Of a stretch of 33,839 nt of DNA, positions 16,830-20,597 are shown in pieces. Made by a program: the position numbers and the translations under genes. Source of the stretch: Kiritimatiellia bacterium (GTDB lineage Bacteria; Verrucomicrobiota; Kiritimatiellia; RFP12; UBA1067); assembly GCA_045220525.1 (NCBI GenBank), contig JBGUVV010000195.1, positions 1 to 33,839 of the forward strand. The letters are read 5' to 3'. A model generated the notes under the pieces. It did not search any database and was not told the DNA's origin. It was given only the letters and a program-made list of their open reading frames with translations. Position 1 is the first letter of the stretch; each line of letters opens with the position of its first letter.

Positions 16830-19800
16830 ATGAAAATCAAGGTTCGTAAAGCGCACGAAAACAATCTCAAAGATTTATCAGTCGATATTCCAATCGGGAA
16901 AATAACGGCAATAACAGGAGTATCCGGCTCTGGGAAGAGCACGTTATTAAAGAATATTCTTGGCGCAACAGGTGCACGCAGATACTCATGCGCAAGCTCC
17001 AAGACAATTAGAAGCGCGCTAACAATATCAAATACCGTAAAAGTGGAAAGCGTTGAGAACCTGCCAACAACAATACTTATAGATGCTAAGAGTTCCATAT
17101 CAAATGCAAGTTCAACTGTCTCAACTGTTTCAGGCGCACATGAAATACTTCGCAATCTTTTTGAAGAAGCCGGGGAATGCCATTGCCCGTATTGCCAATC
17201 AGAAATTGAACGCAACATAACACTGTCCGGTATGTTTGTTGTGGACATTGTCTGTGACGAACGATACGATAAAGCGGTGGCTGTCATTAAGTCAAGAGGA
17301 CATATCCGTCGCGAATGTTTCTTTGACAAAAATAAGCGCCCTTTGGCGAAAAGAACTCGTGCCGCCATGTTCTCAGAAATCCTTTTTGAGCTGCAAGGGG
17401 CTAATGACGCCTGGGCGCACGATTTCAACAAGAACTTTCAATGCACGATCCTAGCAGAAAGAGCAGGACGATATAACCCGTTAACACTTGTACTATGTGA
17501 TAAATGTGGCCGGGTCGTTCCTCGGCTTCTTAGGAGTCGGCTGTCCTTTAACACTGAGTATGACAGGGGCGGCGGTATGTGTCGGCATTGCCACGGCAAT
17601 GGTGTTACATCTGAGGCCAGCGTTAAAGATTTCATAGTCGATGAAAAGAAATCGATTCTAAAAGGAGGCATTCGTTTTGTTTCGGAAAAAGGATTGCAGT
17701 ACACTTCGATAAACTCAAGCATGCTTAAGGCTGCAGCTAAATCGTATGGAATCGATTTGAACGCCAGAATTAAGGACATCTCGAACGCCTGCATTGAGCG
17801 ACTAATGTTCGGTTCTGAGAGTCCACTTGTAATCAATGTAGGCAAAGGCAAGAAGAAAACAATTTGTTTTAAGGGCATTATCGGTTCTCTCAAGGAAAGT
17901 TTTCTCAAGGGGAAAGGTACGTCTTGCCTATCAAAGTACTTCGAGGTCGGCACTTGCACCTCTTGCCAAGGGAAACGAATTGATCCTGAGGCGAACGGGT
18001 TGACTCTTTGGGGAAAAACCTTGTCTATGTTTCTATCAATGACCTTCACAGAGCTGCGTGATTGGTGCAAGGATAGATTGCCTAAAGCAGACAAGCAAGC
18101 CCAAGTTTATCTTGAACGGCTGTTAAAAAAGGTGGATGTCTTTTGCCGCGTGTCTTGTGGACACCTCTCATTGGATCGAAGCAGCAAGACATTAAGTGGA
18201 GGCGAGCTACAGCGTATTCGCGTTTGTGCGTTACTAAACGCTAATGTCAATGGTGTTTGCTATCTTCTTGACGAACCTTCTTCCGGCTTGCATGAAGAGG
18301 ACATTGAATCGCTAGTTTTGTTGTTGCGAGAGATGCGTGATCAGGGCAATACCATAATCATGGTCGAACACAACAGAAAGTTGCTCCGCTATTGCGATTG
18401 GATAGTTGATGTGGGGCCAGAAGGAGGAGCTGCTGGCGGCACATTGCTGTTCTCTGATGCCATAGAAAATGTGAGTAAATTTAGCACACAAACGGCAAAG
18501 CTATTGACAGGGAAAATTGTGAGGCGGAATTCCGCTGATTCAATGAATAAGTCATTGGCAAGACTTCTCAAATTTAACCACCTGTCAACGAATAACCTGA
18601 AAGATGTTTCGGTCTCGCTTCCCTATGGTGCGTTTACAACAGTGTGTGGAATTTCAGGGAGTGGTAAATCAACGTTCTTGCGAGATGTACTATTTGCAAG
18701 AATCGCCAATAGTCCATCGGCATTCGGATTTGAGAAAGTGGTCTATCTAACTCAAAAAACATTCTCAATTCCACATTCTTCTTCCGTGGCGACACAGTTG
18801 AATTGCTTTTCATCTGTCATCAAAGGGTTCGCTAAGCCAAATGGATTAACCCCCGAATGTTTCTTGCCGAATTCTAAGGCTGGGAAATGTCCTGCATGTT
18901 CAGGGCGAGGACTTGTTTGTTCTGACGCTAATGAATTAATCGGCGTCTGCTCTGTTTGCAGTGGCCGTCGTTACTCCCCCGAAGTCTTAAATGCCGTTGC
19001 GTTTGGAGTTTCATTTGGCGATCTTATGGAGACACCACTTTCAGACTTGAGAGAATTATTGCCAATCCAGGAATTGGTGTCATTTTCTGAAGCGGCAAGA
19101 CTTCTTGGAATCGGTTACTTGACTTTTTCGAGAAGAGTAAACACTCTTTCAAAAGGAGAATTCCAACGACTAAGACTTGCCAATGCAATAGTACAAAGCG
19201 AGAGGAAGAGCCTGTTCCTTCTTGACGAACCATCTCGCGGGCTACATGTCGCTGATTCACGCAAGCTCGTTGAAGCCGTTCATCGCCTTACAAAACTTGA
19301 TAATACGGTAGTCGCGGTGGAACACAACCCCCAAGTGATCGACGGTAGCGACTACATCATTGAATTTGGTGGCACTGGGAAGGACGGCGGGTATTTACTG
19401 TATGATGGTGCTGCCAACGGCATACAAGGCATCGACACTCCGACTGCCCGCGCACTTTCGGGAAAAGCAAAACAACTAGGCACCCAACGCAAGTCGGCAA
19501 CAATAGATATCGAATACAAGGTTGGCTCAGAAATTCGTAGGTTCAAAAACAATCGAATCTACCATCTGGACGGCATCCAGTCCGCTGAGATGAGCAATCT
19601 TGCCGCTATGACAACTGCTGATTTTCTCTCGGTTGCTATTCCGGGGAATTCTTTTTACTCTCGTGCCAGGCACTATAACGAAACAATTACATCAACACCA
19701 ATTATTCACCATGTCAGTTTCAAGGATAAAATTAAGTACGAATATTCTCTCTATGATCTTCTTGGGTTGAAGGATCAATTTATAGCTTCAGTGATGGCAA

Positions 19801-20597
19801 AAGACCCTGTAAATTCCGAGTTGCTGCGCTATGTCTTTGATGATTCTAGCCCAACTGGGAAATGCCATTTTTGCAACGGACGCGGCATTGCTTTCGTCGT
19901 GCCAGAGAACTTTTTTATCGATAATGACACGCTAACTAAAGGCTGCAAAGCATTTCTTCGAAAGAGCTCTACATTTCTTGAATTCGCCAAGATGACGAAA
20001 CAAAAACTCTCTGTGGATGTTTTCTCATCTGCCACGAAGATTGATAAGGCTATTCGCAGTACCCTTTTCTATGGAGACAAGGATGAAATAGACAAAGATG
20101 AAACCGGACATTATTGGCCTGGTTTGATTAGATTCTTCCTACAAAATCACACGTATTACCCCGATAAAAGCGCGGAGAAGATATTCTCTCAAAAAACCAT
20201 TGAGACTTGTCCAGTATGTTCGGGGAAGCTGTTGTCAGATCGATTCATGCGCTTTTCCAACCTTTCGACTCTATCCTACCAAGACGTTATGTCCCGCCCA
20301 TTTTCTTGGATACAGAAACATCTCCATGCAGAAAGCGATGTGTATTTATGTCGCTTTAGGGATATTATTAACGATGCTATCCAACTTGGCCTAGGGGCGC
20401 ATTCTGCTAGAGAAGAAATTCAGAATCTCACTGAACTAGATTCAGGGTTGACAGTGCTCATTGCAATGAAGCATTTTGGCTTTTCGCAGATCGGATTGGC
20501 ACTTTCTAACGTTGACATTATCCCTTGTTCCATCAAGAAAGCAGTTAACAAAATCCTAGACGAATTAAAACAAACCAATACTGTATTTATTTGTTGA
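16830..20597 (+). CDS. UvrA-like double ABC ATPase (1255 aa) with a non-canonical C-terminal extension of about 385 aa
   Basis: The start is ATG 16830, after AAAGGAG and 1 nt after the MTase stop. The motifs are: N-terminal AHENNLKDLSVDIPIGKITAITGVSGSGKST; CDKCGRV...CRHCHGNG; LSGGELQRIRV with YLLDEPSSGLH; GISGSGKST; CPACSGRG...CSVCSGRRY; LSKGEFQRLRL with FLLDEPSRGLH; VEHN twice. After about residue 870 the protein continues with extra CxxC modules (CHFCNGRG, CPVCSGKL) and no Walker motifs. Confidence 0.85.
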   Translation: MKIKVRKAHENNLKDLSVDIPIGKITAITGVSGSGKSTLLKNILGATGARRYSCASSKTIRSALTISNTVKVESVENLPTTILIDAKSSISNASSTVSTVSGAHEILRNLFEEAGECHCPYCQSEIERNITLSGMFVVDIVCDERYDKAVAVIKSRGHIRRECFFDKNKRPLAKRTRAAMFSEILFELQGANDAWAHDFNKNFQCTILAERAGRYNPLTLVLCDKCGRVVPRLLRSRLSFNTEYDRGGGMCRHCHGNGVTSEASVKDFIVDEKKSILKGGIRFVSEKGLQYTSINSSMLKAAAKSYGIDLNARIKDISNACIERLMFGSESPLVINVGKGKKKTICFKGIIGSLKESFLKGKGTSCLSKYFEVGTCTSCQGKRIDPEANGLTLWGKTLSMFLSMTFTELRDWCKDRLPKADKQAQVYLERLLKKVDVFCRVSCGHLSLDRSSKTLSGGELQRIRVCALLNANVNGVCYLLDEPSSGLHEEDIESLVLLLREMRDQGNTIIMVEHNRKLLRYCDWIVDVGPEGGAAGGTLLFSDAIENVSKFSTQTAKLLTGKIVRRNSADSMNKSLARLLKFNHLSTNNLKDVSVSLPYGAFTTVCGISGSGKSTFLRDVLFARIANSPSAFGFEKVVYLTQKTFSIPHSSSVATQLNCFSSVIKGFAKPNGLTPECFLPNSKAGKCPACSGRGLVCSDANELIGVCSVCSGRRYSPEVLNAVAFGVSFGDLMETPLSDLRELLPIQELVSFSEAARLLGIGYLTFSRRVNTLSKGEFQRLRLANAIVQSERKSLFLLDEPSRGLHVADSRKLVEAVHRLTKLDNTVVAVEHNPQVIDGSDYIIEFGGTGKDGGYLLYDGAANGIQGIDTPTARALSGKAKQLGTQRKSATIDIEYKVGSEIRRFKNNRIYHLDGIQSAEMSNLAAMTTADFLSVAIPGNSFYSRARHYNETITSTPIIHHVSFKDKIKYEYSLYDLLGLKDQFIASVMAKDPVNSELLRYVFDDSSPTGKCHFCNGRGIAFVVPENFFIDNDTLTKGCKAFLRKSSTFLEFAKMTKQKLSVDVFSSATKIDKAIRSTLFYGDKDEIDKDETGHYWPGLIRFFLQNHTYYPDKSAEKIFSQKTIETCPVCSGKLLSDRFMRFSNLSTLSYQDVMSRPFSWIQKHLHAESDVYLCRFRDIINDAIQLGLGAHSAREEIQNLTELDSGLTVLIAMKHFGFSQIGLALSNVDIIPCSIKKAVNKILDELKQTNTVFIC

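Follow-up and report, generated by a model that had tools for sequence, protein, structure and literature searches.

Related systems

Canonical class I UvrA (TIGR00630; PDB 3pih, 2r6f) is built of ABC modules in tandem, whose proximal and distal ATP sites are composite, and carries zinc modules 1, 2 and 3 (Zn1 to Zn3), an insertion domain and a UvrB-binding domain. The class II UvrAs, among them D. radiodurans UvrA2 and two proteins of drug resistance, Ecm16 and DrrC (PDB 2vf7, 7sh1), have the UvrA fold and do not bind UvrB; they are about 750-850 aa long with two modules only, Zn1 is wholly absent, and their insertion domain is free for substrate recognition (PMC10192343). Among radical SAM (rSAM) peptide systems, HXS (HxsD-HxsB-HxsC-HxsA) is an experimentally demonstrated anti-phage system with a DNA-binding matured effector; it has an adjoining, overlapping pair of genes for an rSAM/SPASM and a second rSAM enzyme, a small helper, HxsD, that maturation requires, and a genetically linked substrate with short aromatic- or His-centred repeats, HxsA, which is secreted, 211 aa long and equipped with a peptidoglycan-binding domain (PMC13128918). 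The triceptides, RiPPs with three-residue cyclophanes, are defined by the aromatic-X-X motif, which occurs consecutively in their precursors; their rSAM/SPASM synthases (YhhB, XyeB, FxsB, HtkB) belong to an anSME-related clade, and their clusters often have a second rSAM whose role is unassigned, e.g. HtkC (PMC11499958).

The window, the whole 33,839-nucleotide stretch of Kiritimatiellia DNA analysed here, contains a cassette that shares features with each of these systems and differs from all of them (Table 1). Its UvrA paralog has the tandem ABC modules and composite ATP sites of canonical UvrA, the same three zinc modules in the same places and the insertion domain, but a predicted, unrelated ferredoxin-like domain stands where canonical UvrA has its UvrB-binding domain, Q-loop I lacks its Gln, the second signature reads LSKGE, a third module (pseudo-NBD III) is added, most conserved DNA-contact Lys/Arg residues are altered, and the gene lies in a mobile peptide-maturation cassette. 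Lack of UvrB binding is predicted to be shared with class II, and Ecm16 and DrrC are likewise encoded inside small-molecule clusters; unlike class II, however, the paralog has Zn1 with its newly inserted domain and a third module, and its partners are a ribosomal peptide and an rSAM pair rather than an NRPS or PKS. With HXS the cassette shares the adjoining, overlapping rSAM/SPASM and second rSAM genes and the linked, repeat-bearing substrate, but here the substrate is a peptide of 59 aa, cytoplasmic in type, whose core lies at the extreme C-terminus; HXS has no methyltransferase or UvrA-like ATPase, whereas the cassette has neither HxsD nor an HxsA-like secreted effector. The consecutive aromatic-X-X motifs and the anSME-related rSAM/SPASM maturase are those of triceptide systems, although the NCBIfam maturase models that the cassette rSAM matches are all matched under cut-off and the cassette chemistry is a prediction. 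Literature searches found no described triceptide cluster with a UvrA-like ATPase, and no description of the combination of a UvrA paralog, a peptide and two rSAM genes.

Table 1. Features of the UvrA-paralog cassette in the window
Feature	Position	Strand	Remarks
Precursor-like peptide, 59 aa	13798..13977	+	ORF, MNLVHDDIMLTPSQEEVQPKSYTKAELSKLREFVDILKKDESRSALACWGNYDDYNHGY; orthologs upstream of first rSAM
Stem-loop, 10-bp stem, weak U-run	14019..14041	+	Between precursor stop and rSAM1 start
rSAM1, radical SAM/SPASM, 384 aa, HxsB-like	14076..15230	+	Pfam Radical_SAM; anSME/cyclophane-synthase relative
rSAM2, radical SAM, 294 aa, HxsC-like	15217..16101	+	14-nt overlap with rSAM1
Class I SAM methyltransferase, MTS small-domain type	16058..16828	+	Pfam MTS, 1.1e-13
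Three-module UvrA paralog, 1,255 aa	16830..20597	+	NBD-I, NBD-II, pseudo-NBD III
Family-specific domain in Zn module 1, ~100 residues (123-222)	17196..17495	+	Predicted ferredoxin-like beta-alpha-beta-beta-alpha-beta fold
Insertion (DNA-binding) domain of NBD-I, residues 255-375	17592..17954	+	Within Zn module 2; PF17755
NBD-II, residues 575-868	18552..19433	+	Walker A K613, Q-loop Q642, Zn3, LSKGE, Walker B D799-E800, H832
Pseudo-NBD III, residues 869-1255	19434..20594	+	No Walker A; degenerate signature/Walker B; fourth Cys4 module
Accessory protein, 214 aa, HExxH...E motif	20587..21231	-	Convergent with UvrA paralog, overlapping its end

The UvrA paralog

The UvrA-paralog reading frame is open from 16803 or 16830 through 20597; the ATG at 16830, which is separated by one base from the methyltransferase stop codon (...TTTTGA C ATG), matches the start of homologs, whose N-termini read MxIxIxNAxENNLKN. 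The gene encodes a full-length, conserved protein in which two intact ABC modules and three zinc modules of the UvrA type are followed by a C-terminal extension of 387 residues, the carrier of a fourth Cys4 module. The earlier note had seen the UvrA plan in the first ~870 residues, and this agrees with a profile-profile alignment in which residues 2-873 of the family match 40 canonical UvrAs (probability 100%) and with T. maritima UvrA 3pih as the top PDB match (E 2.7e-110). The two sets of ATPase motifs and the CxxC modules that it placed at canonical positions are likewise real: in an alignment of 44 family members, both Walker A motifs (K36, K613), the LSGGE first signature (residues 455-459), both Walker B motifs (D481-E482, D799-E800), both H-loop histidines (H514, H832) and the cysteines of Zn1 (C119, C122, C223, C226), Zn2 (C251, C254, C376, C379) and Zn3 (C687, C690, C707, C710) are all invariant. 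The unusual second signature LSKGE (residues 773-777), also remarked on there, is a family trait and not a sequencing error, since 38 of the 44 members have K at position 775 and none has G. With proximal and distal sites assigned according to PMC12796330, the proximal ATP site is degenerate across the family by loss of the Q-loop I Gln and by this signature, and the distal site is consensus.

Whether the UvrB-binding region is retained had been left undecided, and both sequence and structure comparisons indicate that it is not. The insert at residues 123-222, which occupies its place, shows no relationship to the profile of the canonical UvrB-binding domain (probability 0.2%, E 0.31), while in the control comparison the insertion domain finds its canonical counterpart at 99.5% (E 6e-23); PF17760 has no match in the protein. 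An AlphaFold model of the insert (pLDDT 93.2) gave nothing at E <= 0.001 in a Foldseek search of the PDB and no UvrA chain among the top 50, the best weak matches being to S6, ACT, HMA and NikR-type folds, so that an unrelated ferredoxin-like domain probably replaces the UvrB-binding domain. The insertion domain of NBD-I is matched by PF17755 (UvrA_DNA-bind, E 1.2e-11).

The C-terminal extension is, by profile and model comparison, a degenerate third UvrA half-module, as had been proposed. Its residues 1010-1255 align by hhalign with residues 249-512 of half 1 (99.5%, E 2.7e-23), a part that comprises Zn2, the insertion domain, the signature domain and the Walker B strand, and the extension also aligns with half 2 (98.7%, E 3.5e-16); alone it matches TIGR00630 (E 1.1e-07). 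The AlphaFold model (pLDDT 85.3, pTM 0.77) has 39 Foldseek matches at E <= 0.001, all 39 of them to UvrA, UvrA2 or Ecm16. The additional UvrA-style Cys motifs noticed earlier are present as the fourth module, whose four cysteines (C1012, C1015, C1127, C1130) are invariant across the family and which encloses a second insertion-domain-like fold, but the 44-member alignment shows no Walker A motif, and the signature and Walker B positions are unconserved. This module was found in only 39 representatives among 1.84 billion proteins; the long carriers are all 1,186-1,422 aa, and it is restricted to the rare UvrA-paralog family. No support was found for the idea that a frameshift or an assembly error has fused a second gene, encoding these 387 residues, to a normal UvrA-like ORF, and its chance of being correct is vanishingly small, because full-length homologs (1,226-1,295 aa, identity down to 31%) span 98-100% of the query; equal length and this coverage are seen in more than 80 protein clusters, drawn from independent assemblies, and the module occurs only in this architecture.

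The UvrA-paralog gene thus encodes a rare UvrA relative distinct from the DNA-repair UvrA, in a family whose occurrence is scattered across phyla. The window protein has a net charge of +32 (family mean +12, canonical UvrA -3), and the family keeps only 14 of the 56 columns in which canonical UvrA conserves Lys/Arg; the losses include most positions of signature domain II, the domain that makes the most extensive DNA contacts in UvrA (PMC12796330). Because most of the canonical Lys/Arg positions are lost, DNA binding is plausible but would have to go by way of a remodelled surface; the kept insertion domain and the basic charge nevertheless favour nucleic-acid binding of some kind.

The peptide-maturation cassette

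The gene order precursor, HxsB-like rSAM/SPASM, HxsC-like rSAM, methyltransferase and, last, UvrA paralog is common to the window and our loci L001-3, L004/5, L086, L087, L088 and L089, and L004/5 is a cassette of Proteus vulgaris (35% identity). In the window it lies in the low-GC island mentioned in the earlier note, which has 41-46% GC across about 12.1-21.5 kb against 53-65% on both flanks. More distant three-module UvrA-like proteins (26-30% identity) also adjoin rSAM genes (L098 g1091, L099 u1325, L100 u1422), and the clusters at L098 and L100 are complete: they contain an rSAM pair plus a small peptide that ends in an aromatic-X-X repeat (FHTDNHSNW and, at the diverged L100, NHSNHSNHSNW). 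The UvrA paralog is therefore the fixed ATPase part of a compact, horizontally mobile cassette, and we hold its architecture and cassette linkage, taken together, with high confidence. Tailoring genes vary among lineages (methyltransferase, GT2, SDR, extra rSAMs), and neither a conserved exporter in any context nor an RRE, PqqD or HxsD-type protein in the cassette was found.

A peptide product had been hinted at, and orthologous precursor peptides do lie upstream of the first rSAM gene at all loci examined. They have a helical leader motif, Y[TS]xxELxxL[RK]xF, and a core, CWGN[YH][SD]DY[NST][HK]GY, which consists of three successive aromatic-X-X units and runs up to the stop codon; the window precursor ends in CWGNYDDYNHGY. 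A protein search found thirteen further precursors, including the variant cores CWGDYDEHSVSW and CWGDHDDYTHCW; in a scan of metagenomes with the precursor pattern all six matches adjoin rSAM1, with rSAM2 present wherever the contig extends. Curated families gave no match to the peptide. A hairpin with a U-run is found downstream of the precursor gene at five of seven loci, in unrelated sequences (L086 z = -6.9, L089 z = -4.3); since the window stem-loop folds no better than shuffled sequence (z = -0.18), it is the conserved position that supports it as a candidate leaky terminator or attenuator.

The rSAM1 start is taken as the ATG at 14076 (TTG 14007 in the ORF list), where homologs begin MKLQKT, and the CNLRCxYCYE motif and SPASM cysteines are conserved. 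Its NCBIfam matches, all under cut-off, are to anSME (4e-58), YhhB (6e-46), DynA (1e-45), FxsB (6e-33) and HxsB (1.7e-15), and Klebsiella HxsB shares 23% identity with it across 397 aa (E 5e-11). For rSAM2 the top NCBIfam match is HxsC (1.6e-25, under cut-off), the best full-length annotated plasmid relatives are hxsC genes (22-24% identity over ~95% of its length), and Klebsiella HxsC is 23% identical (E 4.5e-11). PADLOC pVip models also match rSAM2 (E 1e-20 to 2e-7), but we read this as similarity general to rSAM enzymes, because the same models are matched by rSAM1 and, at L001, by an unrelated rSAM; PADLOC matches to MADS mad3, mad8 and mad2 were rejected as non-specific, these models having been made from HHpred hits against the PDB. 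The methyltransferase has conserved motifs I (LDVGCGAGP) and IV (SNPP[LVI]) and weak NCBIfam matches to PrmC, TrmN and RsmC, and since ortholog N-termini are shorter its true start is probably Met19, at 16112. The accessory protein, which matched nothing in a family-library search, has a motif, IRHECIHVLQH ... WLYES, that is conserved among homologs and makes it a candidate leader peptidase. These homologs adjoin the UvrA paralog at L001-3 (convergent) and at L087 and L091 (same direction); the gene is missing at L004 and L086.

Possible functions

The sole documented role of UvrA paralogs within biosynthetic clusters is self-resistance, and the cassette could accordingly be an antibiotic RiPP cluster whose cyclophane peptide is an exported DNA-binding or intercalating toxin, with the UvrA paralog removing it from the producer's DNA by an ATP-driven, UvrB-free action like those of Ecm16 (echinomycin) and DrrC (daunorubicin). 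Genes of the uvrA-like kind serve as markers of DNA-intercalator clusters (PMC10413001), lineage-variable tailoring genes are usual in natural-product clusters, a hairpin 3' of the precursor gene is typical for RiPP operons, the peptide core is rich in aromatics, the accessory HExxH protein might remove the leader, and the UvrA-paralog family has two insertion-type domains. We nevertheless regard self-resistance as doubtful, though not negligible: an exporter is conserved in no context and the peptidase is missing from several, and the protein, with Zn1 and its new domain kept and a third module present, is not of class II, nor is it closer to that class by PDB bit score (Ecm16 328 and UvrA2 306, against 373 for canonical UvrA). 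We know of no cyclophane or triceptide product with a DNA target.

An improbable explanation gives the UvrA paralog no action on nucleic acid at all. As a scaffold or chaperone powered by ATP, it would hold the leader with pseudo-NBD III or with the ferredoxin-like insert and offer the core to the rSAM enzymes, standing in for a helper of the RRE or HxsD type, which is missing from the cassette. Its strict co-occurrence with the peptide and rSAM pair over three diverged lineages, the need of HXS maturation for HxsD (PMC13128918) and the loss of the majority of canonical DNA-contact Lys/Arg positions would fit such a helper, but the protein keeps its insertion domain, Zn3 hairpin and strongly basic charge, and 1,255 aa is a costly leader-peptide binder. 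To our knowledge, no UvrA-type ABC ATPase acts as a peptide chaperone. There is next to no chance that the gene serves the host as its housekeeping UvrA for NER and that its C-terminal tail is harmless. Although the two-module core is homologous to UvrA overall, the domain tests contradict this, with no UvrB-binding domain by sequence or fold; the NCBIfam UvrA equivalog scores are below both cut-offs (520 vs 730; 504 vs 1147), Q-loop I is without its Gln and the second signature reads LSKGE. The gene lies within a low-GC mobile cassette that is also in Proteus vulgaris, and the genus Proteus has a canonical uvrA. The earlier note's view that this is not the housekeeping gene thus stands.

We lean tentatively towards a conflict or defence module that may be broadly like the anti-phage HXS. 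This leaning comes from HxsC being the closest named relative of rSAM2 and HXS being anti-phage, from cassette neighbours (AbiL at L001-3, SoFic at L088 and a PDC-S01 candidate ~10 kb away in the window), and from the lack of a conserved exporter, the sporadic cross-phylum spread and the atypical GC. It is weakened because the rSAM pair is remote from HxsB and HxsC (23%, under NCBIfam cut-offs), because rSAM1 scores anSME/triceptide-type maturases above HxsB, and because an HxsA-like effector and HxsD are missing and defence neighbours occur, by plain tally, in only 3 of ~7 contexts. In a defence module the two rSAM enzymes would install cross-links in the core's aromatic-X-X units (WGN, YDD, YNH) and the methyltransferase would methylate the peptide. 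The UvrA paralog would retain the dsDNA-clamping UvrA scaffold (signature domain II, Zn3 hairpin, insertion domain) and hydrolyse ATP mainly at the consensus distal site, the degenerate proximal site being probably slow or regulatory, and it could not hand DNA over to UvrB. New binding surfaces, for which the matured peptide may be the most likely partner, would come from the ferredoxin-like insert and from pseudo-NBD III, which has a second insertion-like domain, and the matured peptide and the DNA-engaging ATPase would then together target incoming or foreign DNA inside the cell.

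A UvrA paralog in a low-GC island

The window contains a low-GC island (41–46% GC at ~12.1–21.5 kb, with flanks of 53–65% GC), whose forward strand carries four long ORFs that overlap or abut one another, the last of which encodes the UvrA paralog. Its ATG lies one base past the methyltransferase stop codon and is also the start of its homologs (consensus MxIxIxNAxENNLKN). All of the motifs quoted in an earlier note on this DNA are present in the protein. That note had allowed that the C-terminal region might be a separate gene joined by a frameshift; this is ruled out, and the long ORF is not an artefact, since over 80 protein clusters, 1,226–1,295 residues long, span 98–100% of the paralog at 31–97% identity.

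Among 44 aligned full-length relatives both Walker A lysines, LSGGE, both Walker B Asp-Glu pairs and both H-loop histidines are invariant, as are the cysteines of zinc modules Zn1 (C119/122/223/226), Zn2 (C251/254/376/379) and Zn3 (C687/690/707/710), all at canonical positions, and four cysteines of an extra C-terminal module. The second signature is LSKGE; residue 775 is lysine in 38 of the 44 members and glycine in none, and LSKGE is a family character. Inside the gene the two Walker B regions show up as a 31-nt direct repeat, so that the paralog's internal duplication can still be traced in the DNA.

In a flanking-repeat search the island proved not to be bracketed by direct repeats, and overall the 3–22 kb part of the window is of mixed GC content, below that of the outer flanks. 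A pair of 74-nt direct repeats is present at the island's right edge, in a stretch without convincing ORFs; no left-edge partner was found, and the pair may represent either a small repeat element or an integration relic. The tRNA-Ser(TGA) gene, ~3 kb off the island edge, might mark an integration site. It occupies the 5' part of a same-strand Ser/Thr kinase ORF, so the true start of the kinase is further downstream. Within the island, a cysteine-rich ORF divergent from the cassette has no Pfam, NCBIfam or PADLOC match and no counterpart by cassettes elsewhere. The ORF that resembles the C-terminal half of PDC-S01, a candidate defence protein in PADLOC, may be truncated or have a miscalled start.

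Coordinates and accessions of the features discussed
Feature	Sequence	Position or accession	Strand	Remarks
PDC-S01-like ORF	window	3278–3913	+	211 aa; matches PDC-S01 223–417/422, E 4.5e-51
Cys-rich ORF	window	12522–13625	-	367 aa
Precursor ORF	window	13798–13977		helical leader motif and C-terminal core
Five-gene cassette	window	13798–20597
UvrA paralog	window	16830–20597	+	ATG at 16830; 1,255 residues
31-nt direct repeat	window	18264–18294 and 19218–19248		81% identical
HExxH...E protein	window	20587–21231	-	~200 aa; conserved motif
74-nt direct repeat	window	21540–21613 and 22087–22160		93% identical; copies 547 nt apart
Ser/Thr kinase ORF	window	22862–24703	-	613 aa
tRNA-Ser(TGA)	window	24538–24625	-
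Orphan rSAM gene and AbiL pair	L001 (likewise L002, L003)	7911–11377		rSAM 387 aa
Cassette locus	L004/5, Proteus vulgaris	GCA_016239305.1
Cassette locus	L087	GCA_947632515.1
Deletion variant of cassette	L091	2646–5442
Two systems back to back	L098	1–11388
Downstream part of variant cluster	L099	3831–10295
Larger variant cluster	L100	92–10912

Replacement of the UvrB-binding domain

Residues 2–873 of the paralog match a profile of 40 canonical UvrAs at 100% probability, and T. maritima UvrA is the best solved relative (E 2.7e-110). A genome scan with the family alignment, through Walker A patterns, gave only canonical UvrAs (~30% identity), and the set of 74 canonical sequences was reused for the class I profile. 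Both NCBIfam equivalog cut-offs are missed (TIGR00630, 519.9 against 729.8; NF001503, 503.9 against 1147), and the UvrA insertion (DNA-binding) domain is present (PF17755, E 1.2e-11). Retention of the UvrB-binding region, which the earlier note could not judge, is now answered in the negative. PF17760, the UvrB-binding domain, has no match in the paralog, and in profile-profile comparison the 100 residues within Zn1 (123–222) match the canonical UvrB-binding domain with a probability of 0.2% (E 0.31), the insertion domain serving as control at 99.5%. AlphaFold models residues 104–240 as a beta-alpha-beta-beta-alpha-beta fold (pLDDT 93.2), for which Foldseek found zero matches in the PDB at E <= 0.001 and no UvrA chain in the top 50; the weak best matches are S6, ACT and HMA-type folds. 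The UvrB-docking domain is thus replaced in this protein.

A degenerate third module at the C-terminus

The C-terminal 387 residues (869–1255) had been suspected to be a degenerate third half-module, and the homology evidence bears this out. Residues 1010–1255 align to the protein's own first half at 249–512 (probability 99.5%, E 2.7e-23), a stretch that includes Zn2, the insertion domain, the signature domain and the Walker B strand, and residues 970–1255 align to its second half (probability 98.7%). Searched alone, the extension matches the TIGR00630 UvrA model (1.1e-07). An AlphaFold model of residues 856–1255 (pLDDT 85.3, pTM 0.77) gave 39 Foldseek matches at E <= 0.001, every one of them UvrA, UvrA2 or Ecm16 (best 1.4e-13). 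The extension has no Walker A, and its LSGGE- and Walker B-equivalent positions are unconserved. From these half-module alignments, UvrA-only structural matches and lost motifs we conclude that it is a pseudo-NBD (pseudo-NBD III), which, judged from sequence and model, has lost catalysis; retained in it are a Cys4 module, the fourth of the protein, and another insertion-type domain.

This module is exclusive to a rare three-module architecture, being present in just 39 proteins of 1.84 billion representatives, of which the long ones are all of 1,186–1,422 residues. No curated family was found for it. Neither the module nor the precursor peptide described below was found in phage records, and on plasmids the two gave one weak match only, to a canonical uvrA.

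ATP sites and the DNA-binding surface

The Q-loop glutamine of NBD-I is missing in all 44 members (Val in 31, Ala in 7, Thr in 3, Ile in 3), and that of NBD-II is invariant. In UvrA the proximal ATP site consists of ATP-binding domain I and signature domain II, and the Q-loop I glutamine touches the nucleotide there (PMC12796330), so the loss of this residue and the LSKGE signature both affect the proximal site. The distal site has the full consensus. Many ABC proteins are asymmetric ATPases in which one site is catalytic and the other slow or regulatory, and we infer the same for the paralog.

Of the 56 alignment columns that hold Lys/Arg in 85% or more of canonical UvrAs, the family retains only 14, and most of those aligned to signature domain II, the domain that contacts DNA most extensively in UvrA (PMC12796330), are lost. 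Net charge is +4.4 in the signature II region (canonical UvrA, +4.2), +3.2 in the insertion domain (canonical, -2.6) and, for the whole protein, +12 as the family mean and +32 in the window protein (canonical, -3). Since positive charge is kept but the canonical Lys/Arg columns are mostly lost, the paralog likely binds nucleic acid on a remodelled surface.

The peptide-maturation cassette

Gene order before the UvrA paralog is identical wherever the contig extends, in the window, in L001–3 (paralog 83% identical), in the Proteus vulgaris locus L004/5 (35%) and in four further loci (L086, L087, L088 and L089): an ORF of 54–62 aa, a radical-SAM/SPASM protein of 383–394 aa in the homologous loci (rSAM1), a second radical-SAM protein of ~294 aa (rSAM2) and a methyltransferase of 230–256 aa. 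The flanks (transposases, Imm42, Fic, NERD, topB) differ wholly among the loci, so the cassette is mobile as one unit.

The small ORF encodes a putative precursor peptide. Its core, at the extreme C-terminus, is nearly invariant (CWGN[YH][SD]DY[NST][HK]GY) and consists of three successive aromatic-X-X units (WGN, [YH][SD]D and Y[NST][HK]) that are conserved across loci; the variant cores CWGDYDEHSVSW and CWGDHDDYTHCW retain the aromatic spacing. The aromatic-X-X motif defines the triceptide cyclophane RiPPs (PMC11499958). A degenerate DNA pattern of the core had no match in viral contigs; it matched six metagenomic contigs, all six with an adjacent rSAM1 and with rSAM2 wherever the contig extends. 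In five of seven loci the peptide gene is separated from rSAM1 by a hairpin and U-run, although the sequences are unrelated; in RiPP operons a hairpin after the precursor gene gives an excess of precursor transcript. Because of the conserved C-terminal core and the hairpin behind the gene, the peptide is best regarded as a substrate. As an HxsD analogue it was rejected, having no similarity to HxsD.

rSAM1 matches the NCBIfam models anSME, YhhB, DynA, FxsB and HxsB and falls in the anSME/YhhB/DynA neighbourhood, under every cut-off. For rSAM2 the best NCBIfam match is HxsC, and its best full-length annotated plasmid relatives are hxsC genes. The methyltransferase belongs to the MTS type and has NPP[LVI] as its motif IV. 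Some cassettes are accompanied by an HExxH...E protein, which may be a leader peptidase; no curated family was found for it or for the precursor peptide. Locus L091 holds a deletion variant in which the methyltransferase is reduced to a 43-residue remnant, immediately followed by a UvrA-like ORF that begins at the equivalent of residue 578 (NBD-II and pseudo-NBD III) and then by a same-strand HExxH protein.

Diverged relatives

Weak matches to the C-terminal module led to three relatives of 26–30% identity, L098 g1091 (1,091 aa), L099 u1325 and L100 u1422, all of which adjoin radical-SAM genes. The L098 and L100 clusters are complete: each has an HxsB-like/HxsC-like pair plus a small peptide that finishes in aromatic-X-X repeats, the last residue being aromatic (...FHTDNHSNW and ...NHSNHSNHSNW, respectively); the L099 contig has a single radical-SAM gene and no peptide adjoining the ATPase. 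Tailoring genes vary among the three (GT2 glycosyltransferase, SDR, RrnaAD-type methyltransferase, extra radical-SAM genes), so the constant set is the peptide, the radical-SAM pair and the three-module UvrA-like ATPase. This is strong comparative evidence that these components are functional partners.

L098 carries two related systems back to back. One strand has a pair of precursor genes, with cores CWGDHDDYTHCW and CWGDYDEHSVSW, together with an rSAM1 sharing 92% identity with that of the window, but no rSAM2, methyltransferase or UvrA paralog; the other has a 50-aa peptide (the one ending in ...FHTDNHSNW), five radical-SAM-type genes and the three-module protein. The larger L100 cluster contains the peptide, the radical-SAM pair, a 303-aa protein, the GT2 glycosyltransferase, the 1,422-aa UvrA-like protein, the RrnaAD-type methyltransferase, a third radical-SAM gene and the SDR. 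L099 shares its downstream part; the N-terminus of its ATPase is annotated as a separate 97-aa ORF, which may reflect a frameshift.

Relationship to known UvrA classes and systems

UvrA paralogs at present fall into three classes: canonical proteins, those without the UvrB-binding domain and fused duplicates. With class I UvrA the family shares two ABC modules (Walker A/B, signature and H-loop) and three Cys4 zinc modules, but it lacks the UvrB-binding domain, the Q-loop I glutamine and most conserved basic residues of the DNA surface, and its second signature is LSKGE; it lies outside this class because it has no UvrB-binding domain and scores under the equivalog cut-offs. Class II UvrAs (UvrA2, Ecm16) have neither the UvrB-binding domain nor zinc module 1 (PMC10192343). 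Unlike these and DrrC, the family retains Zn1, with its 100-residue insert, and has a third module, which places it outside class II as well. It is a fourth UvrA architecture, with a different domain in Zn1, one degenerate ATP site and a third pseudo-module, and its fixed partner is a maturation pair of Hxs-like or triceptide-like kind. In full-text searches that paired UvrA or UvrA-like proteins with radical-SAM or Hxs terms, or with RiPP, precursor peptide, cyclophane or triceptide, no paper described such a combination.

The radical-SAM pair is remotely like that of the HXS system (HxsB 1.7e-15 and HxsC 1.6e-25, both far under cut-off; 23% identity to Klebsiella proteins). The HXS effector HxsA has a signal peptide, HxS repeats and a peptidoglycan-binding domain. 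Neither BLAST of all cassette proteins nor NCBIfam gave any similarity to HxsA or HxsD, and because both are absent the cassette is not an HXS system. With triceptide RiPP clusters it shares the aromatic-X-X precursor, the cyclophane cross-linking being a prediction, and we call it triceptide-like rather than assign it to the triceptide class. Two PADLOC assignments were rejected. MADS has an eight-gene operon in which Mad6, Mad7 and Mad8 are mandatory; the operon content here differs, and the matches (mad3 9e-64, mad8, mad2) are generic ones, to HMMs built from HHpred hits against the PDB. The pVip matches of both radical-SAM proteins we read as generic radical-SAM similarity: an unrelated L001 radical-SAM protein matches the same models, and HxsC is the better match for rSAM2.

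Possible functions

What the analysis shows is the protein architecture, the loss of UvrB docking, the asymmetry between the ATP sites and an obligate association with the peptide-maturation genes; all that concerns function is inferred. Our preferred reading, held tentatively, is that it is a defence or conflict module. The radical-SAM pair resembles that of HXS at the remote level of 23% identity, and work of 2026 showed that classical HxsD-B-C-A defends broadly against phages by way of a radical-SAM-matured effector that binds DNA (PMC13128918). Defence is also suggested by the neighbours, an anecdotal association: the cassette adjoins AbiL in L001–3 and SoFic in L088, and is ~10 kb from the PDC-S01 candidate in the window. 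The abortive-infection pair, directly downstream of the cassette together with an orphan radical-SAM gene, matches AbiLi at 2.4e-57 and AbiLii at 2e-07 in L001. No conserved exporter was found beside the cassette and its distribution is sporadic across phyla, which again favours defence. It is possible, if somewhat less likely, that the paralog instead protects its producer against the matured peptide. Tailoring genes that vary and a putative accessory peptidase would fit a natural-product cluster, and UvrA paralogs without UvrB docking shield producers of DNA intercalators; they act on drug-bound DNA in an ATP-dependent way and owe their specificity to the insertion domain (PMC9328131; PMC10192343; PMC10413001). 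Under defence and self-resistance alike the ATPase would work on nucleic acid, either jointly with the matured peptide or against it. That the paralog is an ATP-driven scaffold for maturation seems to us unlikely.

For most triceptide-type peptides no biological role is known; here the dedicated DNA-type ATPase alongside suggests nucleic acid as the target of the peptide. It is possible, though less likely than not, that the cassette is an unrecognised immune system in which the cross-linked, methylated peptide would be the ligand or a prosthetic "finger" of a DNA-scanning, UvrA-derived ATPase, the UvrB-docking domain having been exchanged for a ligand-binding ferredoxin-like domain and a pseudo-NBD added. 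The five-gene cassette, at ~6.8 kb, is compact, clonable and testable, and the strict pairing in it joins three fields: nucleotide-excision-repair ATPases, cyclophane RiPP chemistry and the newly shown HXS-type phage defence. If the immune-system reading is true, the superfamily that includes the L098, L099 and L100 relatives would consist of sensors or effectors derived from UvrA, each armed with a peptide and directed at the DNA of phages or plasmids.
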